From IMG/VR virus record IMGVR_UViG_3300021376_005091: 64,000 nucleotides of DNA; one strand, written 5' to 3'. The position numbers and the translations under genes were made by a program. Positions 25,130 to 59,144 of this stretch are shown piece after piece (the first letter of the stretch is position 1; each line of letters opens with the position of its first letter). The DNA is from an uncultured virus (IMG/VR IMGVR_UViG_3300021376_005091). Lineage: Duplodnaviria > Heunggongvirae > Uroviricota > Caudoviricetes. Below the pieces are notes generated by a model, which did no database searches, was not told the origin of the DNA, and was given only the letters and a program-made list of their open reading frames with translations.

Positions 25130-25606
25130 ATGAATCTAAGTATCTACACTAATTCGTATCACACACTGCACACGGCCAGCACAGAATTTAATTTTGATGA
25201 AATACCATTGGGATATTCCTCACTGGAGTTATTCGAGAGAGACGTGATACATCTCATGACACACAGCCAAGGCATGGGTCTAGCCGCAAATCAGATTGGA
25301 ATTACCAAAAGATTCTTTGCCATGGGGCACGAGTCATTTGACGTTTTCAAAAAACCTGCTATAATTTATAATCCAGTGCTGGTTCATGCGGACGACAAAC
25401 GCGAAATCGCACAGGAGGGATGTCTCAGTTTCCCGGGCATGTTGCTTGAGATCAGCAGATCACGCACCGTGAAGGTGAGATATCAAAACGGCAAAGGAGA
25501 ATTATTGTTGTCAATTTTAGAAGGATTAGAAGCCAGATGTTTTCAGCACGAGCTCGACCACATCAATGGAATCACTTTCGACCAAAGAGCACGCAGAAAA
25601 AGATAG
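25130..25606 (+). CDS. def: Peptide deformylase
   Basis: GMGLAANQ, EGCLS and QHELDH motifs. Confidence 0.93.
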   Translation: MNLSIYTNSYHTLHTASTEFNFDEIPLGYSSLELFERDVIHLMTHSQGMGLAANQIGITKRFFAMGHESFDVFKKPAIIYNPVLVHADDKREIAQEGCLSFPGMLLEISRSRTVKVRYQNGKGELLLSILEGLEARCFQHELDHINGITFDQRARRKR

Positions 25607-25609
25607 ACT

Positions 25610-33827: not shown

Positions 33828-34907
33828 ATGTTTGATACACGTGCTAACAAAGCTATCTGTGTATTGCCTTGGATACACGAACACCTAGATCTAAGCGGAA
33901 GACAAAGACCTTGTTGTTATGGATCGGCTCTATCAGCGAATAACAGTTTGGATGATGTGAGACGATTAATGCTGGAAGGACAACAACCCAGTGTCTGCAA
34001 TAGCTGTTATGAGCAGGAAAGACAGGGAGAAAGTAGTCCCAGAATAAGAGAAACAATAAAATGGGTTAGGAAATTTTCAGCACCAAAAATAGATGAAACA
34101 AACATACAATACATAGACATAAGAAACGATCCTACTTGTAATTTGAAATGCAAAACATGTGGTCCAGGGGCCAGCACATTGTGGGCGAAAGAGAAGGGGA
34201 TAAAATTAACAAAACCTATGCACAATTTAAACAAATATAATAAAAAAGATTTAAAAAAAGTTTACATGGCCGGTGGAGAACCCACGTACAATGCATCTTA
34301 TTTGGAATTCTTAAAAGATTTGGCCATCGAGAATCCAGATTGTGAAATAGTCATCAATACCAATTTGAAAAATTTGCCATCTAGATGGAAAAAAATCATA
34401 ACATTATTCAAAAATTTTACTGTAACAATTTCCTGCGATGCTATAGGACAATTGGGATCTTACGTTAGATATCCCCTCGAATGGAACAAATTTGAAGAGA
34501 ACATAAATTTTTGTAGAAACAATGGTATCTCTATCATGTTTAATTTGGTTGCTTCCAATATCACTGTGCATGACATAAAAAATACTGTGGAATGGATGAG
34601 TCAATACACCCGCAGCATCAGTCTTAGTCCTGTCGTGGGAAACATATGGACTCATGCCGCAGTGCCAATGGAACAAAGACAGAGATACATTGATAACCTA
34701 ATAAAAATAAAGAAATTTAACATAGACAATTATAAAGCGCACCAATTCAGATTAAATGTAGAATCGCTGATTAAAAAATATAGTGAAGACAACTATGACA
34801 AAAATCTACATGAAATGTTGAAAAATGAGATAAAATCGCAGGATATGCACAGAACTTTAAGGCTTGAAGATGTGGACGTATTTTTAAATACTTGGATTTT
34901 TGCTTAA
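33828..34907 (+). CDS. Radical SAM protein with N-terminal twitch/SPASM-like Cys cluster
   Basis: CNLKCKTC, AGGEP, NTN; CVLPW..PCC...C..C. Confidence 0.88.
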   Translation: MFDTRANKAICVLPWIHEHLDLSGRQRPCCYGSALSANNSLDDVRRLMLEGQQPSVCNSCYEQERQGESSPRIRETIKWVRKFSAPKIDETNIQYIDIRNDPTCNLKCKTCGPGASTLWAKEKGIKLTKPMHNLNKYNKKDLKKVYMAGGEPTYNASYLEFLKDLAIENPDCEIVINTNLKNLPSRWKKIITLFKNFTVTISCDAIGQLGSYVRYPLEWNKFEENINFCRNNGISIMFNLVASNITVHDIKNTVEWMSQYTRSISLSPVVGNIWTHAAVPMEQRQRYIDNLIKIKKFNIDNYKAHQFRLNVESLIKKYSEDNYDKNLHEMLKNEIKSQDMHRTLRLEDVDVFLNTWIFA

Positions 34908-44171: not shown

Positions 44172-44452
44172 TGCATGCCTTCATAGCCGAATTTTGGACA
44201 CAGAGCTACCGCACTGATCGCGTGGCTTTTTATTTTGAGCTGATTAGTGTGATATTCACCATATTTGGATCTCTCGCTCTCACTTTCACCAGCCCACATC
44301 CAAAGATGTGGATTGTGTTTCCCCTTTACCTGATCGGTTCTTCCACCATGACCTATTCGGCCTATCGCAGGAGGAACCTATGGATAACTACTTTGGCCGG
44401 CTGGTTCACTGTGATGAACTGTATCGGCAATTACCTGGTATTTTTTAAATGA
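44171..44452 (+). CDS. Small membrane protein
   Basis: Three hydrophobic segments; GTG start coupled to the previous stop. Confidence 0.6.
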   Translation: MHAFIAEFWTQSYRTDRVAFYFELISVIFTIFGSLALTFTSPHPKMWIVFPLYLIGSSTMTYSAYRRRNLWITTLAGWFTVMNCIGNYLVFFK

Positions 44453-47115
44453 GCTACATAGACGCATTCTACAGGAGAGACGACGACAAAGTTTTTGTCG
44501 TTGAGCGAGATCCCAATGGACAGAGACGGTTCGTTGACTATGATGCAAGATATGTTTTTTACTATCCCGATGCCCGAGGCAAGCACAGGAGCATACACGG
44601 AGAGACACTGCAGAAGGTCACCTGCAGCACGTTCAAGGAGTTCATAAAAGAACAGAAGATCAGGAGCAACAAGAAATTGTTTGAACAGGACATCAATCCT
44701 GTGTTCCGCTGCCTGGAGGAGAATTATCTGGGCAAGGATGCTCCCAAGCTCAACGTGGTGTTCTTTGATATCGAAGTGGACTTTGACCCGCAACGCGGCT
44801 ATTCCACCACCGATGATCCATTCATGCCCATCACCGCCATAACCTGTTATCTCAACTGGACCGATCAGCTGGTCACGTTTGCTGTGCCGCCCAAGGAATT
44901 GAGCATGGCAGATGCCAGGCTGCAGGTGGAGAGATTCAGCAACGTGATGCTGTTCGAGAAAGAAAAAGACATGCTGGACGCATTTCTCACGCTGGTGGAC
45001 GAGGGAGATGTCATCAGTGGCTGGAACTCAGAAGGATATGACCTACCCTATGTCGTAGGCAGGATACAGAAGGTATTGAGCTCCGATGACACAAGAAGAC
45101 TGTGTTTTTGGGGAGAAAAACCTAAGAAGAGGACATTTGAAAAATTTGGCAGGGAACAGATCAGTTATGATTTGACTGGAAGAGTGCATCTGGACCTATT
45201 GGAACTATATAGAAAATACACCTACGAGGAGCGGCACAGCTACCGCCTGGACGCCATAGGTGAATGGGAATTGGACGAGAAGAAGACAGTGTATGAAGGA
45301 TCGCTGGACCAGCTGTACAACAATGACTTTGGCATGTTCATAGAGTACAACAGGCAGGACTGCGACCTGTTGGCAAAATTGGAAAAGAAATTAAAATTTA
45401 TTGAGTTGGCCAATGAGATAGCACACCAAAACACTGTGTTGCTGGACACTACCATGGGAGCAGTGGCGGTTACTGAGCAGGCCATTATCAACGAGGCACA
45501 TCGCAGGGGCATGATAGTGCCTGGCAGGGCAAAGAGAGATGAGTCAGCACCTGTTGAATCAGCGGCGGGGGCCTATGTGGCTTATCCCAAGAAAGGCATA
45601 CACGACTGGATTGGCTCCGTGGACATCAACTCGCTGTATCCATCCGTGATCCGAGCGCTGAACATGGGTCCGGAAACAATAGTGGGACAGATACGTCCTG
45701 TGATCACATCAGCGGAGATAAACAGGGCCAAGCACCAAGGCAAGTCCTTCGCCACTGCATGGGAAGGACAATTTGGTTGTTGGGAATATCAAGCAGTGAT
45801 GGACAAGGACAAAGGCACCGAATTGATTGTTGATTGGGAGGATGGAACCAGCGTGAGGATGAGCGCAGCTCAGCTGCATGATCTTGTGTTCGACGGCAAC
45901 AGGCAGTGGATGATATCTGCCAACGGAACAATATTCACCTATGAGTTCGAAGGAGTCATACCTGGACTTTTAAAGAAATGGTATGCTGAGAGGAAAGACA
46001 TGCAGCACAAGATGTCCGAGTGCGGAGAAAATGAAATAGAGAGAGAATTCTGGGACAAGAGGCAGCTGGTCAAAAAAATCAATCTAAACTCGCTGTATGG
46101 CGCGATATTGAATCCGGGCTGCCGCTTCTTTGACATGCGCATAGGCCAATCAGTGACGTTGACCGGCAGATGCATCACGCAACACATGGCTGCCAAGGCC
46201 AACGAGATCATTGCAGGAAAATATGATCACGTGGGCGAGAGCGTGATCTACGGTGACACTGACTCCGTGTATTTCTCGGCCTACGCCACGCTGCAGGATG
46301 ATATAAAATCTGCAAAAATACAGTGGAACAAGGAAAGTGTGATCGCCCTGTATGACAAGATAGCAGAAGAGGTCAATGGCACATTCACAGCATTCATGAC
46401 TCGAGCGTTCCATTGTCCCAAGACCCGCGGTGACGTGATACGTGCAGGCCGAGAACTGGTGGCCAGCAAGGGACTGTTCATAACCAAAAAAAGATACGCT
46501 CTCTTGTATTTTGACAAGGAGGGCGAGCGTGTGGACACGGCAGGCAAGGAAGGTAAGGTCAAAGCGATGGGTCTGGACCTCAAGCGTTCTGACACTCCGG
46601 TATTCGTACAGGACTTCTTGAGCGACATACTGTATCTGGTGCTGATAGGCAAAACTGAGGCAGAAGTGCTAGATCGAATCAAGCAGTTCCGGGGTGAATT
46701 CAAATCCAGGCCGGGCTGGGAAAAAGGATCTCCCAAGCGTGCCAACAATGTGACAGAATATCACGAAGAGGAGAAGAAGAAAGGCAAGGCCAACATGCCT
46801 GGCCATGTGAGAGCTTCGATCAACTGGAACATCTGCAGAGACATGTATGGCGACAGATACAGCCTGCCAATCACGGATGGAGCCAAGGTGATAGTGTGCA
46901 AATTAAGAAATAATCCCCTTGGATACACGTCTATAGCATATCCAGTGGATGAGCAGAGGTTGCCGGAATGGTTCAAACAACTGCCGTTTGATTCCGATGG
47001 CATGGAACAGAGTGTGCTGGATGGCAAGATTGATAATCTGATTGGTGTGCTGGAATGGGACGTGAGATCCACAGAAAGCAGCAACACGTTCAACAGATTG
47101 TTCGAGGTGGCATGA
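44449..47115 (+). CDS. Family B DNA polymerase
   Basis: Exonuclease FDIE, GWNSEGYD, YNRQD; polymerase DINSLYPS, KKINLNSLYG, YGDTDS, KKRY. Confidence 0.97.
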   Translation: MSYIDAFYRRDDDKVFVVERDPNGQRRFVDYDARYVFYYPDARGKHRSIHGETLQKVTCSTFKEFIKEQKIRSNKKLFEQDINPVFRCLEENYLGKDAPKLNVVFFDIEVDFDPQRGYSTTDDPFMPITAITCYLNWTDQLVTFAVPPKELSMADARLQVERFSNVMLFEKEKDMLDAFLTLVDEGDVISGWNSEGYDLPYVVGRIQKVLSSDDTRRLCFWGEKPKKRTFEKFGREQISYDLTGRVHLDLLELYRKYTYEERHSYRLDAIGEWELDEKKTVYEGSLDQLYNNDFGMFIEYNRQDCDLLAKLEKKLKFIELANEIAHQNTVLLDTTMGAVAVTEQAIINEAHRRGMIVPGRAKRDESAPVESAAGAYVAYPKKGIHDWIGSVDINSLYPSVIRALNMGPETIVGQIRPVITSAEINRAKHQGKSFATAWEGQFGCWEYQAVMDKDKGTELIVDWEDGTSVRMSAAQLHDLVFDGNRQWMISANGTIFTYEFEGVIPGLLKKWYAERKDMQHKMSECGENEIEREFWDKRQLVKKINLNSLYGAILNPGCRFFDMRIGQSVTLTGRCITQHMAAKANEIIAGKYDHVGESVIYGDTDSVYFSAYATLQDDIKSAKIQWNKESVIALYDKIAEEVNGTFTAFMTRAFHCPKTRGDVIRAGRELVASKGLFITKKRYALLYFDKEGERVDTAGKEGKVKAMGLDLKRSDTPVFVQDFLSDILYLVLIGKTEAEVLDRIKQFRGEFKSRPGWEKGSPKRANNVTEYHEEEKKKGKANMPGHVRASINWNICRDMYGDRYSLPITDGAKVIVCKLRNNPLGYTSIAYPVDEQRLPEWFKQLPFDSDGMEQSVLDGKIDNLIGVLEWDVRSTESSNTFNRLFEVA

Positions 47116-47116
47116 C

Positions 47117-47935
47117 ATGTTAAGCATAGAAGAAATCAAGTTGCTGATAGAGAAATTGGAAAAAATTAAATCACACGATTTTCAAAAATTAATCGATGAT
47201 AATCTCAAAATATTGAAAGAGTTGGCCACCACAGTTGATATCAATAATCAAGATCAGATAGATAGACTGGACAAGACCAAGGACTGGTATGCCAAGGACA
47301 TGGAGTGGCGCCACGAGAGACGAGAGGGATTCAATGATAAACTGTTGTTTGATAAAATTGAAAGCAAGATTGGACAGTTTTCTAAAATGGGGGCCAGTTC
47401 TGCCCTATACAACAGTTTAGAAATTGGGCCAGGATACGGAAAATTTAGTAGATTATTTTTGGCATGGAGATTAAACTTCTATGTGGACATATTGCCGCAA
47501 TGCCACAGCAAAATTAAAAAATTGTTCAATCCACAGCAGCACAAATACATCAAGTTTTACACCACAGATAGAACCGCATGCCATGAGATACCGGACAATG
47601 CAGTGAATTTTGTTTTCAGTTGGGACACATTTACATTTTTCACGCAGGAACACATAAGAGAATATCTCAAAGATATATCCAGAGTTATCTTACCAGGTGG
47701 CTATGTGTTTATACATTATGCCAATTGCGAATATGATCGTGATCTTCACGAGGCCAAAAGGGGCTATTGGAATTACAATACTAAATCTGCCATGACAAAA
47801 ATCATCCAAGAAACTGGATATGACGTGTTAGAGATGGATCAATTCTCTCCAGGGAATAACTATGCCATATTTAAGAAACCTGGTAAAGATAATCCTGTGT
47901 TATATCAAGTCATAGAAGTGCCTGTGGAAAAATAA
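47117..47935 (+). CDS. Class I SAM-dependent methyltransferase
   Basis: LEIGPGYG, VNFVFSW, RVILPGG. Confidence 0.8.
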   Translation: MLSIEEIKLLIEKLEKIKSHDFQKLIDDNLKILKELATTVDINNQDQIDRLDKTKDWYAKDMEWRHERREGFNDKLLFDKIESKIGQFSKMGASSALYNSLEIGPGYGKFSRLFLAWRLNFYVDILPQCHSKIKKLFNPQQHKYIKFYTTDRTACHEIPDNAVNFVFSWDTFTFFTQEHIREYLKDISRVILPGGYVFIHYANCEYDRDLHEAKRGYWNYNTKSAMTKIIQETGYDVLEMDQFSPGNNYAIFKKPGKDNPVLYQVIEVPVEK

Positions 47936-48002: not shown

Positions 48003-48740
48003 ATGATAGACATATTAAGAGACATAGTCAAGCACACGTACGGCTTAGGATTCCTAGACCTGGTCAAGATCACAGGCACAGCAGATGAAACGGCGATAGA
48101 TTCCATGGCCGAAGATCGGTCAGTGATACTGCAAGGCACATTCAAACAGCCACAGGCAGGATTGGCGGGCACGTTTGGGATGCCACAATTGAACAAGTTG
48201 GACATACATCTGAAATGTCCCGAATACAAGGACAAGGCACACATCACGGTGATCAAAGGCACAAGAAACAATGCCGAAGTGCCTGTGGGCATACACTTTG
48301 AGAACGAGAAGGGTGATTTCAAGAACGATTATCGTTTCATGAACGCCGAGATCATCAACGAGAAACTGAAAACTATCAAATTCAAAGGCGTCAAGTGGGA
48401 CGTGGAGATCGAGCCCACAGTGGCGGGCGTGCAGAGATTCAACTTCCAATCTGTCGCCAACACAGAACACAACACCTTCGTGGTGAGGACCGACAACGGC
48501 AACCTCATATTCACGTTTGGTGATCAGGCATCTCATGGCGGTGAATTCACTTTCGCCACAGGTGTCAAGGGCACTCTCAATAAAGGTTGGAGCTGGCCAG
48601 TGGCGCAGGTTCTCCAGATATTGAAACTGAGCGACTCCGCCAAGGTAACCTTGCATTTCTCCAACGAGGGCGCAATGCAGGTCACAGTGGATTCGGGAGT
48701 TGGCGTATATCGTTACATCATACCAGCACAGGCGCAGTGA
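48003..48740 (+). CDS. Putative DNA sliding clamp (gp45/PCNA-like)
   Basis: About 245 aa two-domain beta/alpha pattern ending YRYIIPAQ; replication context with PolB and clamp loader. Confidence 0.65.
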   Translation: MIDILRDIVKHTYGLGFLDLVKITGTADETAIDSMAEDRSVILQGTFKQPQAGLAGTFGMPQLNKLDIHLKCPEYKDKAHITVIKGTRNNAEVPVGIHFENEKGDFKNDYRFMNAEIINEKLKTIKFKGVKWDVEIEPTVAGVQRFNFQSVANTEHNTFVVRTDNGNLIFTFGDQASHGGEFTFATGVKGTLNKGWSWPVAQVLQILKLSDSAKVTLHFSNEGAMQVTVDSGVGVYRYIIPAQAQ

Positions 48741-50185
48741 TGCCAGATAACAGGCAGGAACATCTAGGGCCTTTGAACAGGGACTTTGCCCGATTCTTGC
48801 CGGCCATATCCAATTTCTACAACACCTTCATCAGCAAGCAGAGAGCGAAAGGCGATCACATATCTAAAGAAAGAATACCTAAAGGTTTTGAGAATGATGT
48901 GGAGGGATTAAACTTTCTTAATCCAGAGAAAGGTTATTTTACCTATGATGTGGGTTTATATTCAGCAGGACATGCTTGTCTAGACGTGGAAAAAGCACCT
49001 GTGGCTGACAGTATGTGTATACAGAGAGACAGAAAATTTTCTACCATAGTGGGTGATTCGGGTGGGTATCAGATAGGCCGAGGAGTTATTAATTTTGATT
49101 GGCAGGATTTCGAAGGTAACAAAGCCAATAAAGTTAGAAGCAATATTCTAAATTGGTTAGAATTAACCGCTGACTGGTCTATGACGCTGGACGTGCCAAC
49201 CTGGGCAGCGGATGAATTAAACTCTCCAAAAACAGGATTGAAGAGTTTTCAAGACACTCTAAATGGCACAATCTATAACAACAAATTCTTCCAAAAGAAC
49301 AGATTGGGACAAACTAAATTTTTGAACGTATTACAAGGAGATGATTGGGAAACGGCACAAACATGGTATGATGCCATCAAAGATTTTGAGTTTGAAGGAT
49401 GGGCAATGGGTGGCATCAACATGTGCGACATGGAAGTCTTGTTAAAAAGATTGGTCATAATGAGAGATGAGAAGAAATTGGACAAGAAAAATTGGATACA
49501 CGTGCTGGGCACATCACAACTGGATTGGGCTTGTTTCTTAACACAGATACAGAGACAGTTAAGAAAACATGTAAATCCAGATGTCACGATTAGTTTTGAT
49601 TCAGCATCCGCTTTCCTAAGCACAGCCAATGGCTTAGTGTACACACACAATCTATTCACTCCCAAGAGATGGAGTTATATCATGGAGAAAGCACCAGATG
49701 ACAAAAGATTGAAAGGCAGCACCATACCATTCCCATTCAAGAGTGCTATCGGTAATCGATTACACATGGGAGATGTTTGCTGGTATGGAGAAGGTGACCT
49801 AAATAAAAACAACAAAGAAGGCAAAACTTCTTGGGATAGTTTCAGTTATATATTAATGATGGCACACAACGTATACAATCACATCAGAGCTGTACAGATT
49901 GCCAATGACATGAATGACATAGAAATGATCAAGCACCAACCGGAAGCCAAACACTGGAGAAAGATCAAGGAATCGGACAACACAGATCAGATGAGCGATT
50001 TCGTTCCGAGAAACATACTGTATTTCAACACGTTCGTGAAGGAGGTGTTTGAGTCGGAAAAACCAATGGAGTTGATCAGTTCCGCCACATCATTCCTGGC
50101 AGACATAAGGGGCACCAGATGGCAGAGAGCCACTGGTGGCGGCAAGGGCAAGAACAACTTCAGTTCACTATTCGAAGGAGGATAA
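48740..50185 (+). CDS. dpdA: TGT-fold guanine transglycosylase, DpdA-like (start moved to 48740)
   Basis: GDSGGYQ, MTLDVP, NVLQG, WAMGG, IHVLG and SFDSAS motifs of the TGT family; clustered with folE, queE and yhhQ. Confidence 0.85.
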   Translation: MPDNRQEHLGPLNRDFARFLPAISNFYNTFISKQRAKGDHISKERIPKGFENDVEGLNFLNPEKGYFTYDVGLYSAGHACLDVEKAPVADSMCIQRDRKFSTIVGDSGGYQIGRGVINFDWQDFEGNKANKVRSNILNWLELTADWSMTLDVPTWAADELNSPKTGLKSFQDTLNGTIYNNKFFQKNRLGQTKFLNVLQGDDWETAQTWYDAIKDFEFEGWAMGGINMCDMEVLLKRLVIMRDEKKLDKKNWIHVLGTSQLDWACFLTQIQRQLRKHVNPDVTISFDSASAFLSTANGLVYTHNLFTPKRWSYIMEKAPDDKRLKGSTIPFPFKSAIGNRLHMGDVCWYGEGDLNKNNKEGKTSWDSFSYILMMAHNVYNHIRAVQIANDMNDIEMIKHQPEAKHWRKIKESDNTDQMSDFVPRNILYFNTFVKEVFESEKPMELISSATSFLADIRGTRWQRATGGGKGKNNFSSLFEGG

Positions 50186-50389: not shown

Positions 50390-50417
50390 TTGACAAATTA
50401 AATTATCATGCTACAAT
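50390..50417 (+). promoter_or_regulatory. Sigma70-type promoter with extended -10
   Basis: TTGACA-N16-TACAAT with TGn, 8 nt before ATG 50426. Confidence 0.65.
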
Positions 50418-50425
50418 TAGGCAAC

Positions 50426-50944
50426 ATGAACAGAGATTATGCAACAGGACATTATAGCAACAGCGAGGTCAATGTGTTCACTGGCGTTGAAATTGAGCAC
50501 ACCATTGCATATGGTAAAAGAACTTTATTTTTGGCCACAAATAGTCTAAGCACTGATGATGTGTTGGAACTGGCCACCATGAATGGCTGCGAGGCAGTGT
50601 ATTATGGAGCCAACAGGACGTTCCAGTACAACCTAGGCACGCAGGTTTTCCAGATGAAAAAGTTGTTGGACAATGGTTATTATGTCACCATCGATTATCC
50701 CTACGCTGATCACGAAGAAGTCAAGAAAAGATTCGCACTGATATGGAACGAACCTAGGTTCATACCATTTTGCTCCATCATATTCCAGCACAGCGACGAT
50801 GACCAACAACTGCACTTCAAGATAGACGATGTCACTTTCAGACACAGCAATCCAGGAGTGTGGACCATGAGCATGAAAGAATTTAAAGAAAAGTCGGGAT
50901 TCACAGATTGGGACCAATATGGCAAGGATGAAATCATAAAATGA
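50426..50944 (+). CDS. Hypothetical protein in the deazaguanine cluster (start moved to 50426)
   Basis: FTGVEIEHT.AYG..TLF, KIDD..F..SNPGVW, FTDW..Y..D. Confidence 0.65.
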   Translation: MNRDYATGHYSNSEVNVFTGVEIEHTIAYGKRTLFLATNSLSTDDVLELATMNGCEAVYYGANRTFQYNLGTQVFQMKKLLDNGYYVTIDYPYADHEEVKKRFALIWNEPRFIPFCSIIFQHSDDDQQLHFKIDDVTFRHSNPGVWTMSMKEFKEKSGFTDWDQYGKDEIIK

Positions 50945-51363
50945 TAGAAGCACAGAGAGAGCAGGCACTGAAAGAAAAATTAGGTCAAAGCTCAAAGATG
51001 ATCTGGGTCACTTTCCGCAAGGAAGGCATACACAAATATCCCGCGGCACTGACAGATTCAAAATTGGCCACAGGTGATGAATATGACGTGAGCTTCTTGG
51101 GCTATCCCCACAGGCACATGTTCCATTTTCATGTAGCGATAGAGGTGTTCCACGATGACCGAGACATTGAATTCATACAGTTCAAGAGATGGTTGGAAAA
51201 ATTATACACAGAGAAGACGCTGGCACTTGATTACAAAAGTTGTGAAATGATATCGGATGATCTGTATCTCGCGATCATACAACGTTATCCAGGCAGAAAA
51301 ATAACAATAGAAGTATCAGAGGATGGAGAGAATGGCTCGAAAGCAGAATACCCAAGAGGTTAA
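50941..51363 (+). CDS. QueD-paralogous T-fold protein, DpdL-like
   Basis: EGIH, LGYPHRHMF (LxxxHRHxF in place of QueD CxxxHGH), SCEMI, VSEDGENG. Confidence 0.7.
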   Translation: MIEAQREQALKEKLGQSSKMIWVTFRKEGIHKYPAALTDSKLATGDEYDVSFLGYPHRHMFHFHVAIEVFHDDRDIEFIQFKRWLEKLYTEKTLALDYKSCEMISDDLYLAIIQRYPGRKITIEVSEDGENGSKAEYPRG

Positions 51364-51682
51364 CATAGAAGTAAACATTCCGGTCAGAACGCTGACCCGG
51401 AGGAAAGGATATCTCCCCATAGGTGGCGGGGCTCTAAATGCCGACTACACCTTCGTGGATGCCGTGGCCAATGTTTGCACCATGATGGGCAGCGCTGGTT
51501 ATACCTATGGCAAGGATTTCATCTGGGCGTATCACGGCTACAATGATGACATGGAAGACACGGTGACCCTATATGTTCGGGATGAAAAGATCAGGACATG
51601 GCTGCATCTGCGAGCGAAGTGTGATTACCATATCAAACACACTAGTGATGGTGGTGTCAAATTAACAAGGATTGCTCGATGA
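51323..51682 (+). CDS. Hypothetical protein
   Basis: Overlap-coupled within the cluster. Confidence 0.55.
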   Translation: MERMARKQNTQEVNIEVNIPVRTLTRRKGYLPIGGGALNADYTFVDAVANVCTMMGSAGYTYGKDFIWAYHGYNDDMEDTVTLYVRDEKIRTWLHLRAKCDYHIKHTSDGGVKLTRIAR

Positions 51683-51984
51683 GAATAAGATTAGTATTTG
51701 AACCACATGCTGGCGTTAACATCAATAACAATCAAACCTTCCGTCATTACGGAGAAAATTATCTCAGTGATTTTGCCGTGGAATGGGGAGGATTCATAGT
51801 TTTAGATTCTAACGAGACATTGTATGGACGAGCAGAACCGTTGTATCAATTTTTAATACATGAAGGCAATGACAATATTTTGGCGGACCTAATGAGATAT
51901 TTGAAAACCAATCCCATGCATGGGTATCACACCCACGTGCTGGTAGGTAAGAAGAGCCAGAAGGAGGTGATTGTAAGCACGTGA
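51679..51984 (+). CDS. Hypothetical protein
   Basis: ATGA/GTGA overlaps with neighbours. Confidence 0.55.
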   Translation: MRIRLVFEPHAGVNINNNQTFRHYGENYLSDFAVEWGGFIVLDSNETLYGRAEPLYQFLIHEGNDNILADLMRYLKTNPMHGYHTHVLVGKKSQKEVIVST

Positions 51985-53159
51985 TGAAAATATTTTACAT
52001 GGGCCTGGAGCCCTATGAAGGTCGCTACACGCTACAGTTAACCGATTGGACCGAGAGAATCTACAAGAAACGCGGCATAGACTACGTGGTCGTGCCCGGC
52101 ACCACCATAGACAATTCCAAAGCCATAGTGACTGGACAGGTGCTGGACGCACACGGCAGGAGCTATTTCGGCATGAGCCAGATGATGAATTTGGTTCGCA
52201 TGATGAAATCTGGAGAAGTTACTTCTGATGACGTGATATTTTTTGAGGACATGTTCCAACCGGGCATGGAATCGCTGCCCTACATCATACAACAGTCGCC
52301 AGAGAAGTACAGGCCGAGGATATATCTAAGGTGCCTGGCACAGTCCATAGATCCAGATGACTTCGTGCATGTCTGGCGCATGAGCCGATGGATGAGCCTG
52401 TATGAACAGATGTGCAACGAGATACCCAACGTGCATATACTTGCCACGAACGAGGAGATGGTGGCACATATGAGAATAGCCAACTGGCGCGCTCCCATCT
52501 ACAACATTTCCGGTCTGAGTTATGGCAAACAGGAAGTGCTGGAGAGAATCAAGACCATCAGACCATTTGATCAAAGAACAATGAGAGTTGGCTACGCCGC
52601 CAGATGGGATCAGGAAAAGCAGCCAGGGTTTTTCATGGATCTAATCGAGCAATGGCTTGCCGACGAGTCATTGCCTGCCACGGAGTTCGCCGTTTACTGT
52701 GGCGGACCATTGCGATCCAACAACATAAACTATGTTCATCGCGCAAGGCACTTGGAGAAGTCTGGCAAAATTAAAATTTACGAACACTTGAAAAAAAATG
52801 ACTACTATGAACTGTTGAATGACACCAGAGTGCTGTTCAACTGCGCACTGCAGGACTGGGTGTCAAACACAGTGTCCGAAGCTGACACACTGGGCTGCAA
52901 TGTTCTTTTTCCGGCATATAGGTCATTCCCAGAAACATTCGCCAATGACGACAGCAGGATGTACGTGCCATGGAGCAGCAGAGACGCCATGCAAAAATTG
53001 AAAGTGTTGTTGCAGGCACCATCGCCAAACATGGGCAAGATATCGGATTGGACCGACGGCACGGTGGACAGAATGATCGACATCATTACAGGCAAGGGAG
53101 AGCAATGGAGGAGAGATGGAAGCGACTACAGGACGTATGCGCCCGAAGCCAAGTACTAA
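51981..53159 (+). CDS. GT-B fold glycosyltransferase (GT4-like)
   Basis: YAARWDQEKQP, YYELL, NCALQDWVSNTVSEADTLGC..L.P, SFPE. Confidence 0.78.
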   Translation: MMKIFYMGLEPYEGRYTLQLTDWTERIYKKRGIDYVVVPGTTIDNSKAIVTGQVLDAHGRSYFGMSQMMNLVRMMKSGEVTSDDVIFFEDMFQPGMESLPYIIQQSPEKYRPRIYLRCLAQSIDPDDFVHVWRMSRWMSLYEQMCNEIPNVHILATNEEMVAHMRIANWRAPIYNISGLSYGKQEVLERIKTIRPFDQRTMRVGYAARWDQEKQPGFFMDLIEQWLADESLPATEFAVYCGGPLRSNNINYVHRARHLEKSGKIKIYEHLKKNDYYELLNDTRVLFNCALQDWVSNTVSEADTLGCNVLFPAYRSFPETFANDDSRMYVPWSSRDAMQKLKVLLQAPSPNMGKISDWTDGTVDRMIDIITGKGEQWRRDGSDYRTYAPEAKY

Positions 53160-54156
53160 AGGCATCAGCAAGTCGGTGCTGGTAGTGGGAGGGGCCGGCT
53201 ACATCGGTTCTCACACCGCCAAGGAGCTGACCAAGAATGGGTTCACTCCGGTCGTGGTTGACAGAGACATCAAGACCAAACCCTGGGCCACGCAGTTTGG
53301 ACCGGCATTTGAATGCCATCTGCCCAGAGACACTGACTTCCTGCAGGAAATCATCAACAGATACAACATAGACTCCTGTATACATTTCGCCGCGCACACC
53401 CAGGTGGGAGAGTCTGTGAGAGATCCATCTAAATATTACAAGAACAACGTGATAATGACTGTGCAGTTGTTGGACAAGTTGAGAGATCTAGGCATCAACA
53501 AGGTGGTCTTCTCTTCAAGCGCTGCAGTGTATGGCATTCCCGCCAACGGAGTGGCCAGGGATGATGACATCAACCTGCATCCAATCAACCCGTATGGCAG
53601 GAGCAAGTTGATGATTGAAAATGTATTGAAGGACTATCATGTGGCCTATGGACTGAGCAGCGTCAGCCTGCGCTATTTCAACGCCGCGGGAGCGGACGCT
53701 GACAGCGAGATCGGTGAACTGCGCGAGGACGAGACGCATATCATACCATTGGCCATAGATGCAGCACATAGAGATCGAGAATTCAAGCTGTTTGGCACTG
53801 ATTTTGACACAGCGGATGGGACCTGTGTGAGAGACTATGTCCACGTGACCGATCTCGCGGTGGCGCACGTGCTGGCACTGCAGCGAGCGTCTGGTGATGT
53901 GATCTGTGAGACTTATAACCTGGGCTCCGGCATCAGCACAAGCAACAGGCAACTGTTGGAGACCATAAAAAAATACGTGGGGCACATCAAGATAATGGAA
54001 ATGCCGCGCAGGGCGGGCGATCCACCTGTGCTGGTGGCCGACAACACACGCGCGAACACAGAACTTGGCTGGCGGCCATCACACAGTTCTATTGACAACA
54101 TCGTGGCCACTGCTGTAAAATGGTATAACAAGATTAACCAAAAAGAATTTAACTGA
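53116..54156 (+). CDS. galE: UDP-glucose 4-epimerase
   Basis: GGAGYIGSH, HFAA, SSSAAVYG, YGRSK, LRYFNAAGA, DGTCVRDYVHV, RRAGDP. Confidence 0.93.
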   Translation: MEATTGRMRPKPSTKGISKSVLVVGGAGYIGSHTAKELTKNGFTPVVVDRDIKTKPWATQFGPAFECHLPRDTDFLQEIINRYNIDSCIHFAAHTQVGESVRDPSKYYKNNVIMTVQLLDKLRDLGINKVVFSSSAAVYGIPANGVARDDDINLHPINPYGRSKLMIENVLKDYHVAYGLSSVSLRYFNAAGADADSEIGELREDETHIIPLAIDAAHRDREFKLFGTDFDTADGTCVRDYVHVTDLAVAHVLALQRASGDVICETYNLGSGISTSNRQLLETIKKYVGHIKIMEMPRRAGDPPVLVADNTRANTELGWRPSHSSIDNIVATAVKWYNKINQKEFN

Positions 54157-54908
54157 TGTCAGACACACGTAAAGATATCATGTCAGGGGGTTTGATGGAC
54201 ACTTGGACTGACAAAAACAAGCCGATCAGCCAGCAGATACGCGAAAGGATAGTGAAGTCAGGTGAGAGGTTCTTCGCGGCGGACAACATCAGCAGATATA
54301 TTGAAAATGGGGAGAGAGAAAAACTGATTGACGAGCTGACCACGAAATTCGACGCTGTGCTGGACAGCTTGGTCATAGACAGGACCAATGATCCCAACAG
54401 CGTTGGCACAGGCCGCAGGCTGGCCAAGATGTACATAACGGAGATCATGGGAGGGAGATACAACCCTCCACCAGAAGTCACGACATTTCCCAACGAAGAT
54501 GGCAGATACGATCAGCTGATAGTGATCAGGTCCGACATCAAGAGCATGTGCTCGCATCACCATCAGCCCATGACGGGCGTGTGCTACATCGGATGTCTCC
54601 CGGGCAAGCGTCTGATCGGACTCAGCAAGTACACCAGGATAGCGCAGCACCAGGCCGCGAGAGGACATCTGCAGGAAGAGCTCACAGAGAAGATAGCATA
54701 CAAGATAGCACAGCTCACGGAAAGCCCGGCAGTGGGTGTCTACATCAGGGCCAGACACGGCTGCTGCGAGAACCGAGGGATAAGAAGCGGTGATTCCAGC
54801 ACGCAGACCACGGTGCTGAAGGGGTTATTGAAGACGGACCCGGCATTGAAGAGTGAATTTATGCACAACATACAACTGCAGGAAGCACAGTGTGGGCCAA
54901 ATGGATAA
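54156..54908 (+). CDS. folE: GTP cyclohydrolase I
   Basis: SMCSHHH, GLSKYTR, LQEELT, HGCCENRG. Confidence 0.93.
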   Translation: MSDTRKDIMSGGLMDTWTDKNKPISQQIRERIVKSGERFFAADNISRYIENGEREKLIDELTTKFDAVLDSLVIDRTNDPNSVGTGRRLAKMYITEIMGGRYNPPPEVTTFPNEDGRYDQLIVIRSDIKSMCSHHHQPMTGVCYIGCLPGKRLIGLSKYTRIAQHQAARGHLQEELTEKIAYKIAQLTESPAVGVYIRARHGCCENRGIRSGDSSTQTTVLKGLLKTDPALKSEFMHNIQLQEAQCGPNG

Positions 54909-55179
54909 AAAACTTACAGCAATGACTTCTGCATCACTTTTCCCTGAGCTGGACGCCAGCGAAACCTTTGCGCTGGATGAAACGTTGTACAACACAGACA
55001 TCAACGTGGGCACAGTGGCCACGGCGGCCAACGTGCAGATGGATTGGGGAGACATGTTCTACACCTCAAAAGATGAAGAGCTTAGACAGAAGTATCCGGC
55101 TTTGAAGCAGGCATGGGATCACTACCACAACATATTGAACATGTGCAAGACCAGAGAAGGAGAAATGGATGCGAATTGA
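54901..55179 (+). CDS. Hypothetical protein (start moved to 54901)
   Basis: LRQKYPALKQAWDHY motif; coupled to folE and guaC. Confidence 0.6.
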   Translation: MDKKLTAMTSASLFPELDASETFALDETLYNTDINVGTVATAANVQMDWGDMFYTSKDEELRQKYPALKQAWDHYHNILNMCKTREGEMDAN

Positions 55180-56212
55180 TCACACCCTGCATCTGGATTA
55201 TTCCGACGTGTTGCTCAAACCCAAGAGATCCACGCTTAACTCTCGCAGAGACGTGGACATGACGAGAGACTTCACATTCAGGAACAGCCGCAAACAACTT
55301 TCATACACACCAATAATGGCCAGCAACATGGATGGAGTTGGCACTTTTTCCATGGCACGCGTGCTACAGGATTACAAGATGCTGACGGTGATACGCAAGC
55401 ACTACACTATAGACCAATGGAAGCAGACCGCGGGCACAGGCATAAAATTCAAATATGTGTCTGCGTGCGTGGGAACGGGAGCCATATGGGACGAGAACAC
55501 GCAGGACTACCAGACACTGAAACAGGTCATGCGGGCATTCCCGGACATACCAACCATAACGATAGACGTGGCCAACGCATACCACGAACAGTTCGTGGAC
55601 TTTGTGAAGAGGATAAGATCCGAATACCCAGACAAGGTGCTGATAGCGGGCAACGTCGTGTCGCCTGAGATGACAGAGGAACTGATAATAAACGGCGCAG
55701 ACGTGGTCAAGATCGGCATAGGGCCTGGATCCGTGTGCACCACCAGGACTCAGACCGGGGTGGGAGTGCCGCAGTTCTCCGCTATCGTGGAGTGTGCTGA
55801 CGCTGCCAATGGAGTTGGCGGGCACATCATAGCCGATGGAGGTTGCACCCAGTCCGGAGACGTGTCAAAGGCGCTGGCTGCCGGCGCACACTTCGTGATG
55901 CTGGGAGGCATGCTGGCGGCACATGAAGAATCAGAATTGGAGCTGCGTGATGGCAAGAGAGTTTTTTATGGCATGAGTTCCGAGTCGGCCTTTGAGAGGT
56001 ATGGCATGCGCAAGGACGGCTACAGAGGCACAGAGGGAAAGACAGTGCTGCTGGATGACCGAGGTCCTGTGAAGGACACAGTGGAACAGATATTGGGTGG
56101 TGTGAGAAGCACCTGCACCTACATCGGAGCTAGACGTATCAAGGACATGCCGAAGTGCGCTCACTTCGTGAGGGTCAACAACGTGATCAACAGGGTCTAC
56201 GATGGCAAGTAA
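55169..56212 (+). CDS. guaC: GMP reductase
   Basis: ASNMDGVGT, IDVANAY, GIGPGSVCTTR, ADGG, FYGMSS, GGVRSTCTYIG; 347 aa. Confidence 0.92.
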   Translation: MRIDHTLHLDYSDVLLKPKRSTLNSRRDVDMTRDFTFRNSRKQLSYTPIMASNMDGVGTFSMARVLQDYKMLTVIRKHYTIDQWKQTAGTGIKFKYVSACVGTGAIWDENTQDYQTLKQVMRAFPDIPTITIDVANAYHEQFVDFVKRIRSEYPDKVLIAGNVVSPEMTEELIINGADVVKIGIGPGSVCTTRTQTGVGVPQFSAIVECADAANGVGGHIIADGGCTQSGDVSKALAAGAHFVMLGGMLAAHEESELELRDGKRVFYGMSSESAFERYGMRKDGYRGTEGKTVLLDDRGPVKDTVEQILGGVRSTCTYIGARRIKDMPKCAHFVRVNNVINRVYDGK

Positions 56213-56435
56213 ATTACCAACCAAACCTTACCAATCGCTGGCCTGGATCGGAACAGTGGTTCTGTTGTGCGCCGCCACGCTGGCAGCCTTCAACGTGTTT
56301 CCGGTATATGTGTATCTATTTTGCGTGGCCAATGGCATATGGGTGCTAGTGGGCATACTGTGGCAAGAACGCAGTCTAATAGCACTTAATGCAGGATTAA
56401 CAGCCATCTACGTGGCAGGATTACTATTAAAATGA
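56202..56435 (+). CDS. Small membrane protein
   Basis: Three hydrophobic helices. Confidence 0.6.
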   Translation: MASKLPTKPYQSLAWIGTVVLLCAATLAAFNVFPVYVYLFCVANGIWVLVGILWQERSLIALNAGLTAIYVAGLLLK

Positions 56436-56899
56436 CAGCGGTTGATACTGTGCAAAAAACTTATTTTACCACACTGCAGATGCGCCAGGCACTGACTCAA
56501 ATTGAGGATCAGCTGGTGCATTCCATGTGGATGCCTAGCATTATACTGGGCATCAACAGAGGTGGCTGCGTGCCAGGAGTGTACCTATCACATAGATTGA
56601 AAAAGGAGCACGCAGTGCTGGACGTGCGACTGAGGGATCATGCAGTCAAGCCCAACCTCTCTGTGCTGGAAAAAGAATACGCATTTCAGAAAAAGATTTT
56701 GATCATTGACGACATCAACGACACCGGAGCCACGTTCCAATACATCGTGGACAACTTTGGAAAACCTGAGCGTGTGCGTTTTGCTGCTGTGGTCAATAAC
56801 AAACCATCGCCTGTCAAAATGGACTACCAGGGCTACGAGATTGACAAAAGTCTACAGCCGCAGTGGGTGGTCTTTCCATGGGAGGAATGGCAAACCTAA
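56432..56899 (+). CDS. Type I phosphoribosyltransferase (Gpt-like)
   Basis: GINRGG, ILIIDDINDTGAT PRPP motif, WVVFPWE. Confidence 0.88.
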   Translation: MTAVDTVQKTYFTTLQMRQALTQIEDQLVHSMWMPSIILGINRGGCVPGVYLSHRLKKEHAVLDVRLRDHAVKPNLSVLEKEYAFQKKILIIDDINDTGATFQYIVDNFGKPERVRFAAVVNNKPSPVKMDYQGYEIDKSLQPQWVVFPWEEWQT

Positions 56900-56910
56900 A
56901 AAGGAGAAAC

Positions 56911-57552
56911 ATGACAAACTATCTAAACAATCTGTTGAAAGATGTTGACCGTGGCCTGTTGCGGAATTTGGTGATATTCCACACAGTGATCATTGCTATT
57001 AGCAATTATCTTGTGACCATACGCTTCAATCTCTTTGCAGAAAAGATCAACATACTGGGCTGGCAGACCAGCTTCCCATTGGCAGCTGCGGCCTTCACGT
57101 TCCCGCTGGTGGTGGTCGCAAGCGATCTCACCGTGCGGTTGGTGGGCAAGCACACCGCCAGGGCGGTGGTGGCCATGGCCATGCTGCCCGCCATAGTGGC
57201 GTCGGTGGCTGTGCTTCTTATATTGAAGGACCCACACGCAATCAGAGTGGGCGTGGCATCCGGCACCGCATATGCAGTGGGCACCATGCTGGACGTTTAC
57301 GTGATGCAGTACATACGTGAGAAGTGGACCAGCAACTGGTGGCTGGCTCCGGCCCTCAGCACTGTGGCGGCCAACATCATTGACACCTACACATTCTTCT
57401 ACACTGCGTTCTATCCGCAGCCGTGGGTGCATGCGGTGGCCTTCAACAACACCTTGGTCAAAATCATTGTGGGATTCATAATCTTTTTGCCCGCGTATGG
57501 AGTGTTGCTGATGTATCTGCAGAACAAGCTGCAGAGGAAACTGGTTGGATAG
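56911..57552 (+). CDS. yhhQ: Queuosine-precursor (7-deazaguanine) transporter, YhhQ/VUT family (start moved to 56911)
   Basis: AAGGAG RBS; IAISNYLV, FTFP....SDLTVR, ASGTAY..G..LDV, ST...NIIDT..F. Confidence 0.88.
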   Translation: MTNYLNNLLKDVDRGLLRNLVIFHTVIIAISNYLVTIRFNLFAEKINILGWQTSFPLAAAAFTFPLVVVASDLTVRLVGKHTARAVVAMAMLPAIVASVAVLLILKDPHAIRVGVASGTAYAVGTMLDVYVMQYIREKWTSNWWLAPALSTVAANIIDTYTFFYTAFYPQPWVHAVAFNNTLVKIIVGFIIFLPAYGVLLMYLQNKLQRKLVG

Positions 57553-57614: not shown

Positions 57615-57622
57615 GTGTGGAT

Positions 57623-58015
57623 ATGTCAAATAAGGCCGGCAAGATCTGGGGACAGACCGAACTGATACACGCCAATGGCGTGCTGGAATTCCACCGCATC
57701 GACTTCAGGGCGGGAGGAGTGTGCAGCAAACACCAGCACAAACACAAGTGGAACGGATTCTACGTGGTGTCAGGCCGGATGAAGATCAAGGTCTGGCAGA
57801 GAGACCAGCAGGACCTCATCGACGAGACGATATTGGGACCCGGCGATTTCACCAAGGTCAAGCCAGGCTACTTCCATCTCTTCGAGGGAATAGAGGACGG
57901 CGTGGCCTTTGAACTGTACTGGGCAGAGTTCAATCATGATGACATTCAAAGAGAGACAGTGGGCCATTTCCGCAGCGGCAATGTGGTGAGGCTTGATAAA
58001 AAAGATAAAAGATGA
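57623..58015 (+). CDS. Cupin domain protein
   Basis: KIWG, CSKHQHKHKWNGFYV.SG, PGYFHLF. Confidence 0.8.
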   Translation: MSNKAGKIWGQTELIHANGVLEFHRIDFRAGGVCSKHQHKHKWNGFYVVSGRMKIKVWQRDQQDLIDETILGPGDFTKVKPGYFHLFEGIEDGVAFELYWAEFNHDDIQRETVGHFRSGNVVRLDKKDKR

Positions 58016-58176: not shown

Positions 58177-58306
58177 CGAAAACGAATACGAAGTGTACAC
58201 TTTAGATGAGGACCCAGAAATTAAAAAAAAGAGAATGGGAAAATACACTGTGGAAGAGATATTAGAAGCGGTCGAGGCATTGCATGAGCAAGATAAAAGT
58301 AGCTGA
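58160..58306 (+). CDS. Small hypothetical protein, 48 aa (not in the ORF track)
   Basis: Fills the gap between zf-CHCC and queE with overlaps at both ends. Confidence 0.45.
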   Translation: MNSKIDENEYEVYTLDEDPEIKKKRMGKYTVEEILEAVEALHEQDKSS

Positions 58307-59144
58307 ACTATTTTACAGCATACAGGGAGAGGGGCGCTACATGGGCGTGCCTTCGGTATTCCTGCGAACATTTGGCTGCAACTTCACCTGTGCCGGGTTC
58401 GGCCTACCCAAAGGGGTCAGGAGCGATGAAAATGACAAGGTGTACGAGCAACATAAAAAATTCCCATTCAAAGATTATCGAGAATTGCCTTTGGTCAGCA
58501 CAGGCTGTGACAGCTATGCCTCCTGGGATCCTAGATTCAAGGACCTGTCTCCCATGCTGACGTCAGACGCCATAGTGGAGAGGACCATGGAGATATTGCC
58601 ACACAAGCGATGGGTCGATGAGCATTTCATATTCACGGGCGGCGAGCCATTGCTGGGCTGGCAGAGAGCATATCCTGATTTACTGGAGCACGGCAAGATG
58701 CAGGACCTCAGAGAGATCACTTTCGAGACCAATGGCACACAGAGACTTCATCAAGATTTCAAACGATATCTTTCACAGTGGAGTCACAGGCATGGTAGGA
58801 ACAAAGATAGCATCACTTTCTCTGTGAGCGCAAAATTGAGCGTGAGCGGCGAGAAGCGAGAAGATGCCATTGTGCCCGATGTGGTAGCGGAGTATGGTGA
58901 AGTGGGACATGTGTACTTGAAATTTGTGATCGTTGACATCAATGATGCCTATGAAGCCATAGAGGTCGTAAAGGAATATAATAAAGCGGGATTCCGAGGT
59001 TCCGTTTATCTCATGCCCGTGGGTGGTGTGGAGAGCGTGTATCACATGAACAACAGGACAGTTGCAGAGCTGGCAATGAAAATGGGCTACAGATACAGCG
59101 ATAGATTACAGGTGCCATTGTTCAAGAATGCTTGGGGAACGTAA
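58284..59144 (+). CDS. queE: 7-carboxy-7-deazaguanine synthase (radical SAM)
   Basis: ELFYSIQGEG, FLRTFGCNFTC...GCDS, TGGEP, FETNGT, YLMP. Confidence 0.9.
   Translation: MSKIKVAELFYSIQGEGRYMGVPSVFLRTFGCNFTCAGFGLPKGVRSDENDKVYEQHKKFPFKDYRELPLVSTGCDSYASWDPRFKDLSPMLTSDAIVERTMEILPHKRWVDEHFIFTGGEPLLGWQRAYPDLLEHGKMQDLREITFETNGTQRLHQDFKRYLSQWSHRHGRNKDSITFSVSAKLSVSGEKREDAIVPDVVAEYGEVGHVYLKFVIVDINDAYEAIEVVKEYNKAGFRGSVYLMPVGGVESVYHMNNRTVAELAMKMGYRYSDRLQVPLFKNAWGT

Follow-up and report, generated by a model that had tools for sequence, protein, structure and literature searches.

Why would a virus that appears equipped to replace guanine in its DNA carry, among the genes for doing so, a glycosyltransferase and an enzyme of sugar-donor synthesis? 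The question is raised by a stretch of 64,000 nucleotides (the window) from an uncultured virus of the Caudoviricetes (IMG/VR record IMGVR_UViG_3300021376_005091), in which the genes for a glycosyltransferase (GT) and for GalE, a UDP-glucose 4-epimerase, sit inside what we recognize from sequence as a 7-deazaguanine DNA-modification module. An earlier note on this DNA had pointed to the pair and proposed transfer of galactose or N-acetylgalactosamine (GalNAc) to modified DNA; its observation was confirmed, and its interpretation is partly supported. On balance, we lean towards GT being a dedicated but optional glycosylation step of a DpdL/DpdA-type 7-deazaguanine pathway, with GalE supplying UDP-galactose (UDP-Gal). 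The occurrence of the pair in a guanine-replacing gene set suggests a sugar-bearing purine substitute in the phage DNA, where galactose as the sugar and DNA as its destination are read from the gene neighborhood only. The genes at the center of the question are the following.

51981..53159, + strand: GT4-like retaining GT-B glycosyltransferase (GT); model pLDDT 95.8, GT4 fold matches
53116..54156, + strand: UDP-glucose 4-epimerase GalE; TIGR01179; start may be 53137 or 53176
54156..54908, + strand: GTP cyclohydrolase I FolE; PF01227, E 5.7e-37; NF006824

All three open reading frames (ORFs) were found on the plus strand at these coordinates. The GT gene starts at 51981 (GTG) or 51984 (ATG), overlapping the stop of a preceding 101-aa ORF and with GAAGGAGG 12–15 nt upstream, and ends at 53159, encoding 392 aa. 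In Pfam, only PF13524 was hit (E 5.7e-4; 20.3 bits, under the cut-off of 25), and nothing was matched in PHROGs or NCBIfam. The family assignment rests on the fold and on the profile of relatives, not on the Pfam score of the protein itself. A whole-library search with GT returned 799 representative clusters at E ≤ 1e-3, and PF00534 was matched at E ≤ 1e-3 by 35 of 59 diverse full-length family members. The AlphaFold model, which had the family alignment as input, is of the GT-B type, with two Rossmann-like domains and a cleft (pLDDT 95.8, pTM 0.92). The GT-B identity claimed in the earlier note, while not evident from Pfam, was therefore borne out by the model and the fold searches.

The model matched dozens of GT4 retaining enzymes at Z 23–27, with a root-mean-square deviation of 3.1–4.3 Å over 297–350 residues. 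These included sucrose-phosphate synthase, MshA, BshA, SenB, glycogen synthase, and BGluT; because none of them stands out, the fold gives no acceptor. Against solved structures, the single GT sequence found nothing significant and the family profile found weak GT4 matches only (best E 4e-4). The family resembles small-acceptor GT4 enzymes (MshA, BshA, SenB, sucrose-phosphate synthase, BGluT) at Z 24–27 over ~300–340 residues and retains their R-x4-K pair and glutamate. However, it shares just 8–13% identity with them, is near phage-only and DpdL-linked, and has N-terminal motifs of its own: the acceptor domain carries the invariant ExRYT, D90, G95, D127, and W137, which no Pfam model covers. 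R208, K213 (R-x4-K), and E300 are invariant or near-invariant across the 59 family sequences and are kept even in the 23%-identical homologues of phages ACP17 and Phosso. We take the R208/K213 pair and E300 (EX7E-like) to be the donor-binding positions of GT4 enzymes and, given their conservation, we take GT to be an active UDP-sugar-dependent GT4-like retaining glycosyltransferase. No fused longer forms of GT (687–2000 aa) were found, so there is no Rosetta-stone clue to the acceptor; in the single 655-aa relative (P0168), the extension had no Pfam domain.

The glucosyltransferases of phage T4, which glucosylate 5-hydroxymethylcytosine (hmC) in DNA, are an obvious comparison. Like GT, the T4 alpha- and beta-glucosyltransferases (AGT and BGT) are phage-encoded GT-B enzymes of the early/replication region, and both would add a sugar, as an optional extra, to a base that is itself non-canonical, so the likeness is a functional analogy only. 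The structural comparison with AGT and BGT that had been suggested gave no specific likeness among the matches listed, nor was one seen in sequence. Among predicted viral structures (BFVD), the second-best GT match was a 342-aa ACP17 protein named “glycosyl transferase family 1” (TM 0.69/0.78), while proteins named DNA alpha-GT ranked 30 and 36 (TM 0.47–0.50), beneath generic GT4 enzymes; T4 AGT and BGT entries were not among the PDB matches listed. The donor in the window is probably UDP-Gal, as opposed to UDP-glucose in T4, and the acceptor would be a purine analogue. A hydroxymethyl-pyrimidine pathway was not found in complete relatives. In particular, a hydroxymethylase of the ThyA family (PF00303) was absent from 3/3 relatives that are at least 99% complete and from the 114-kb nearest record, while control genomes gave matches; other DNA acceptors look unlikely for this reason. 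A search for Tet/JBP enzymes gave no match in complete relatives, with control genomes likewise without match.

The identity of GalE was as the earlier note had it. TIGR01179 was matched at 351.6 bits (cut-off 262.3), and the best solved relatives were all UDP-glucose/galactose 4-epimerases, with E down to 5e-82. The translation displays GGAGYIGSH, SSSAAVYG, and YGRSK, presumably the GxxGxxG NAD site, the catalytic serine, and the YxxxK motif. The galE stop (TGA, 54154–54156) does overlap the folE start (ATG, 54156), by one base (TGATG). The reported overlap of GT with galE applies to the longest GalE ORF (53116–54156, 346 aa), which shares 44 nt with GT up to its stop (TAA, 53157–53159); an alternative ATG at 53137 would give a 23-nt overlap. 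Since TIGR01179 matches only from residue 21 on, so that the conserved core of GalE starts at a GTG at 53176, past the GT stop, the overlap is possible but not certain. The pair is positioned between a DpdL-like gene and folE as claimed, with two small clade-specific ORFs separating the DpdL-like gene from GT.

To place these genes, we compared two sets of loci from IMG/VR. The close set comprises 80 loci (55–85% identity), the best 80 of 589 confirmed matches; the distant set, from seed alignment A4 (25–37% identity among members), comprises the best 80 of 555 confirmed matches. Of the 80 close loci, 58 have a GalE-family gene no more than 100 nt downstream of GT and another 14 have one within 6 kb, the rest being four loci with no room downstream and four without GalE. 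The GalE cut-off was passed by 22 of 23 sampled short-chain dehydrogenase/reductase genes near GT (up to ~0.9 kb downstream, most of them directly adjacent). A DpdL-like protein is encoded in 77 of the 80, in 68 of them within 1.5 kb of GT, with DpdA-like, p178, DpdL, GT, GalE, FolE as the recurrent order; linkage in this set could be inherited synteny. In the distant set, where at least six different gene orders were seen, 72 of 80 loci have DpdL, which directly adjoins GT in 38 of them. The other genes found there were QueE (60 loci), FolE (54), GalE (39), QueD (32), DpdA-like (24), and a phosphoribosyltransferase (PRTase; 9). In most of the eight distant loci without DpdL, GT was close to the end of the contig or had a DpdA-like gene as its neighbor.

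Cultured phages provide the same association over longer distances. DpdL-like genes were found in 28 records, grouped as 12 lineages, and in six of these GT is a neighbor of DpdL: BUCT-ZZ01, the PA5oct group, Xanthomonas X1/BUDD, ACP17 (where GT has DpdL on one side and the gene in the DpdA position on the other), Phosso, and BCSR5. Whole-genome profile searches identified a single GT-family gene in each of ACP17, Phosso, BCSR5, and X1, adjoining DpdL in every case. GT is absent from the other six lineages; profile searches found no GT-family gene in RHph_I1_18, Bakedbeans, Ahp1, D479, or MA9V-3, nor in the whole genome of phiST. Presence of GT is patchy with respect to DpdL similarity. For example, the DpdL of RHph_I1_18 is 60% identical to that of the window, yet this phage has no GT. 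As half of the cultured DpdL lineages lack it, phiST with its measured product among them, GT is not needed for the core pathway; it is an optional accessory of the DpdL-type module that, where present, stands beside DpdL. By analogy, the pattern fits a decoration step on a core pathway, as with glucosylation of hmC in T-even phages.

Three GT-less phages have features of their own in this region. In Vibrio phage Bakedbeans (L089 6263–7414) and Chryseobacterium phage MA9V-3 (L093 6494–7375), the DpdL domain is C-terminal in a longer protein (383 and 293 aa, respectively), with N-terminal parts that have no Pfam match. In Rhizobium phage RHph_I1_18 (L088 7408–8232), a macro-domain (Appr-1-p processing) protein follows DpdL, at the place where GT sits elsewhere. 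Conversely, Synechococcus phage BUCT-ZZ01 encodes, between FolE and a 416-aa ORF, a second, weakly GT1-like protein of 447 aa (L001 9010–10353; PF13692, E 3e-5), and the two glycosyltransferase-like genes in one cluster hint at more than one sugar.

Cellular genomes were scanned at one genome per species (185,579 species), with a single pattern per scan and thus limited sensitivity. The first pattern found no GT relatives. A further pattern found five only (67–80% identity), all on contigs of metagenome-assembled genomes (L174–L178) with the discordant labels Rickettsiales, Chitinophagales, Phycisphaerae, Haliscomenobacter, and Chloroflexi; these are probably phage contigs mis-binned with bacteria. 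Among the sequences found, the GT family is almost phage-only. The earlier note had considered that GT might group with lipopolysaccharide (LPS) enzymes and be unlinked to dpd genes; instead, the scans of 185,579 species gave five hits, and the linkage to dpd genes is tight.

These results bear on the possibility that GT and GalE decorate virion proteins, such as fiber proteins with DDST motifs, or host envelope glycans, their position being a matter of inherited gene order. The combination of a GT4 enzyme and GalE is one usually seen in the synthesis of polysaccharides and glycoproteins, and many of the loci have a T4-like ancestry in common. The DDST motifs mentioned in the earlier note do exist, four in each of two tail-fiber-like ORFs (2–1174 and 2134–6186), but nothing ties them to GT. 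The linkage, however, holds in six distant cultured lineages and despite at least six different gene orders, the sole family member found in four whole genomes adjoins DpdL, and the family was nearly absent from the cellular genomes scanned, the home of LPS and capsule enzymes. GT is also located among early replication genes and not among structural genes. We consequently regard decoration of virion or envelope as improbable.

If GT acts in the modification pathway, which other steps does the locus encode? The order in the window is PolB, clamp-like, DpdA-like transglycosylase, p178, DpdL-like, GT, GalE, FolE, GMP reductase, PRTase, YhhQ, cupin, and QueE. Besides GT, GalE, and FolE, the features are as follows, with SAM standing for S-adenosylmethionine, TGT for tRNA-guanine transglycosylase, and CDG for 7-carboxy-7-deazaguanine.

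44449..47115, + strand: T4-type family B DNA polymerase (PolB); PF00136/PF03104; phrog_262, E 3e-196; C-terminus NTFNRLFEVA
47117..47935, + strand: class I SAM methyltransferase; PF13489/PF08241/PF13649
48003..48740, + strand: inferred sliding-clamp-like protein; phrog_12062; 37% identity, E 8e-60, to a Pseudomonas phage PAC2 protein
48740..50185, + strand: DpdA-like (TGT-fold) transglycosylase; Foldseek and DSGGxQ; C-terminus NNFSSLFEGG; longest ORF from a TTG at 48587
50408..50944, + strand: p178, conserved module protein; homologues in related modules
50941..51363, + strand: DpdL-like QueD paralogue; LGYPHRHMF; homology to ACP17 and phiST genes
51323..51682 and 51679..51984, + strand: two small ORFs of 119 and 101 aa; only in closest relatives
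55169..56212, + strand: GMP reductase; NF003470, 466 bits (cut-off 397)
56432..56899, + strand: purine PRTase; PF00156; weak match to xanthine PRTase models
56863..57552, + strand: YhhQ-type queuosine-precursor transporter; TIGR00697, 86.4 bits (cut-off 50.95)
57617..58015, + strand: small cupin protein; PF07883; closest relatives only
58284..59144, + strand: QueE-like radical SAM enzyme (CDG synthase); phrog_2076, E 3.9e-49; weak QueE-model matches

The DpdL-like ORF (140 aa) carries LGYPHRHMF, which fits the LxxxHRHxF signature that replaces the CxxxHGH of QueD in DpdL, as given in the main text of Cui, Hutinet et al. (Nucleic Acids Res 2023, PMC10516641). Its L53, H57, R58, and H59 are invariant in 32 sequences, as are histidine and glutamate columns, and tblastn gave 57% identity to the ACP17 DpdL locus (E 4e-37) and 30% to that of phiST (E 6e-8). 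DpdL is described there as a QueD paralogue for which decarboxylation of CDG is proposed, although even for phiST this is not demonstrated (PMC10516641, main text). By homology, the protein in the window is a proposed CDG decarboxylase.

The 481-aa DpdA-like protein has no Pfam match, PF01702 included, and its profile gave no match against solved-structure sequences. Its model (pLDDT 83.7) matched tRNA-guanine transglycosylases in all 50 Foldseek PDB matches listed (E 1e-8 to 7e-8; target TM 0.48–0.55), DSGGxQ is invariant in the family, and an Atlas lead pointed to a TGT-like cluster. The family hidden Markov model found no match in the phiST, ACP17, or X1 loci, and a pairwise comparison with ACP17 gp123 was weak (E 0.009). 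The protein is probably a DNA base-exchange enzyme, TGT-like by predicted fold and DSGGxQ only. The adjacent p178 has no family match, its Atlas scores (up to 0.78) being at noise level. Homologues of p178 occur in 63 of 80 close and 23 of 80 distant loci, adjoin DpdA/GT/DpdL in ACP17, and lie elsewhere in the PA5oct genome.

A shared C-terminal motif may connect base exchange with replication. Of 236 window ORFs of at least 80 aa, only PolB (NTFNRLFEVA, 47086–47115) and the DpdA-like protein (NNFSSLFEGG, 50156–50185) have F..LF in their last 12 residues, and the tail is kept in 49 of 51 PolB and 63 of 73 DpdA-like homologues. Between the two genes lies the clamp-like gene, whose PAC2 homologue was labeled PCNA by its depositors and whose product found no match among solved-structure sequences. 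The tails may dock PolB and the DpdA-like protein on the clamp, which, with the clamp-like gene between them, suggests base exchange at the replication fork.

For precursor synthesis, QueD (PF01242) is absent from the window and from the nearest 114-kb record; 5/5 large relatives have one, so this gene probably lies outside the window. QueC was not found in the window. The sole trace, a C-terminal match of 19.2 bits, fell below threshold and was rejected as QueC.

Folds, family assignments, and the linkage of the genes are results of the analysis, linkage being the chief one. The pathway that we infer, with its acceptor, sugar, linkage, and order of steps, would run as follows. FolE, QueD (outside the window), and QueE would convert GTP to CDG, the DpdL-like protein would process CDG, and the DpdA-like protein would exchange guanine in DNA for the processed deazaguanine, maybe while docked on the clamp by its F..LF tail. 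GalE would make UDP-Gal (or UDP-GalNAc), from which GT would move the sugar to the deazapurine, either as the free base before insertion or in DNA after it. The virion DNA would then bear hexosyl-deazaguanine, and GMP reductase and PRTase could salvage the guanine released by base exchange. The sugar might be linked as an N-glycoside, as an acyl-glycoside of CDG, or as a C-glycoside at the pyrrole carbon, which is electron-rich.

As an alternative, the acceptor of GT may be a soluble pterin or some other intermediate of the pathway that is never built into DNA, with the DpdL-like T-fold protein supplying a pterin acceptor. There is a precedent in cyanobacteria, where UDP-glucose:tetrahydrobiopterin glucosyltransferase acts downstream of FolE and a PTPS/QueD-like enzyme. 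In many loci, the genes for FolE, the DpdL-like PTPS/QueD paralogue, and GT adjoin one another, the fold matches include BGluT structures, the GT family is acidic as expected of a small-molecule enzyme, and the decarboxylase activity of DpdL is, in the main text of PMC10516641, never demonstrated. However, BGluT (9v0l, Z 24.1; 5zes, Z 23.8; range 23.2–24.1, with 5ze7 at rank 34) is tied with dozens of GT4 enzymes at Z 23–27 and is non-specific as a match. GT also travels with QueE (in those 60 distant loci) and with DpdA-like genes, neither of which would have a role in the synthesis of a pterin glycoside, and we cannot name a benefit of such a glycoside to the phage. We give a soluble acceptor of this kind a low probability.

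GMP reductase and PRTase allow for another route. Encoded at 55169–56899 within the deazaguanine cluster, they could salvage guanine freed by base exchange, and they presumably have counterparts in tubercidin and toyocamycin biosynthesis, where a PRTase and a GMP-reductase-like enzyme take part. Taken with this presumed parallel, their presence and the adjacency of PRTase to QueE in BUCT-ZZ01 and PAC2 would accommodate a scheme in which the two enzymes build deazapurine nucleotides from CDG, and GT acts on the nucleoside or nucleotide, modifying or masking it before polymerization or detoxifying it. But the TGT-fold DpdA-like protein with its polymerase-like tail argues for base exchange on DNA, guanine salvage would explain the two genes equally well, and PRTase is present in only 9 of the 80 distant loci. 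This scheme appears very improbable to us.

Several points weigh against our explanation, glycosylation of the deazapurine by GT. The nucleoside chemistry available is limited to phiST, which is GT-less, and none comes from GT-bearing phages. Moreover, 7-deazaguanine (dDG as the deoxynucleoside) offers no hydroxyl or amine at C7 for a sugar, so that an ester on CDG or an N- or C-glycoside would be required. The closest solved folds of GT are enzymes acting on small molecules or sugars and not on nucleic acids. The family is acidic, with a median isoelectric point of 5.86 and values above 7.5 in 4 of 59 members only, which leans towards a soluble acceptor. A polymerase-like clamp tail on GT was considered and ruled out, F..LF being found in 0 of 80 family members. 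As to linkage, GT is missing from 6 of the 12 cultured lineages, phiST included; kinship among T4-like replication modules accounts for many of the loci, which makes part of the linkage inherited synteny; and each set consists of the best 80 of some 555–589 confirmed matches.

How does the locus compare with systems that have been studied? The DpdL/DpdA3 system of phiST resembles the window in having FolE and QueE with QueC not found (PMC10516641, main text), and in that its replication genes adjoin those for a DpdL-like QueD paralogue, bearing LxxxHRHxF, and for a distant transglycosylase of the TGT fold. It differs in that the whole phiST genome has no GT-family member and the 14-kb cluster stretch has no GalE. 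Its DpdA3 is 259 aa, against ~480 aa in the window, and the window module adds GT, GalE, p178, GMP reductase, PRTase, and YhhQ. In phiST, dDG fully replaces deoxyguanosine, and this is the only lineage with measured dDG (PMC10516641, Table 1). None of the eight 7-deazaguanine DNA derivatives in the abstract of that paper bears a sugar, and “glycosyl” as a word start is absent from its main text. A full-text literature search found no paper linking a glycosyltransferase or GalE to phage deazaguanine genes, the 2024 MMBR review and the supplements of PMC10516641 being outside its scope.

Acidovorax phage ACP17 offers a further comparison. Its gp124 (NC_041997.1, annotated as hypothetical) belongs to the GT family (pairwise E 8e-14) and lies between gp123, in the DpdA position, and the DpdL gp125; unlike GT of the window, it has 342 aa and no GalE beside it. 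Expression of ACP17 dpdL and dpdA in E. coli yielded no dDG, and the authors suggest that other enzymes may be needed (PMC10516641, main text). The ACP17 GT, located between these two genes, was not part of the published E. coli experiment. It could be the “unknown enzyme” whose absence left dpdA and dpdL without product, and GT may explain why DpdL/DpdA3 systems reconstituted in E. coli have failed so far. For PA5oct, the DNA is described as resisting enzymes that cut G-containing sites, with a modification not yet identified by chemistry (PMC12191111).

From these observations, we put forward a more specific prediction, and do so tentatively, as something that we think more likely to fail than to hold in all its parts. 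A hexosylated (e.g., galactosylated) 7-deazaguanine would be present in the virion DNA of the window phage, ACP17, PA5oct, X1, BCSR5, Phosso, and BUCT-ZZ01, a clamp-tethered DpdA-like protein would install the modified base at the fork, and GT would be the enzyme missing from the ACP17 reconstitution. All sugar-bearing DNA bases known to us are pyrimidines; if true, this purine analogue with a sugar would be the first of its kind in any DNA. The find combines two known kinds of biology, 7-deazaguanine modification of phage DNA and decoration of DNA bases by GT-B enzymes, with a deazapurine as the proposed acceptor. The joint occurrence of a GT family and DpdL in many phage lineages leads us to predict a new class of base. 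The lineages concerned include abundant aquatic jumbo phages and the PA5oct group of therapeutic candidates, and the cultured members make the prediction directly testable. Hypermodifications of phage DNA decide which restriction, CRISPR, and glycosylase defenses work, and they are a source of enzymes and bases for biotechnology.

The virus itself is known from metagenomes only. The window is part of a T4-like myovirus encoding baseplate and fiber proteins, a clamp loader, PhoH, and a family B polymerase. Its nearest record is a 114-kb fragment, 32% complete by CheckV; as relatives with direct terminal repeats have 347–353 kb, we class it from its sequence as a jumbo phage. No cultured phage matched the region in a DNA search at near-identity, and promoter and terminator scans found sites no commoner than in shuffled sequence.

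A few further genes deserve mention. The two small ORFs preceding GT (51323–51984) have no family match and homologues in near loci only. The SAM methyltransferase gene (47117–47935) recurs at this place, after PolB and before the clamp-like gene, in many of the 80 close loci; its product could methylate a base or a sugar. A twitch-domain radical SAM protein is encoded at 33828–34907 (NF033640, 198 bits), and its homologues are inserted in the DpdA-DpdL-GT block of several relatives (e.g., L014, L015, L028, L040, L043, and L072). At 25130–27919, a peptide deformylase adjoins a 769-aa ATP-dependent protease (phrog_4871, E 6e-248), an unusual auxiliary pair for a phage.

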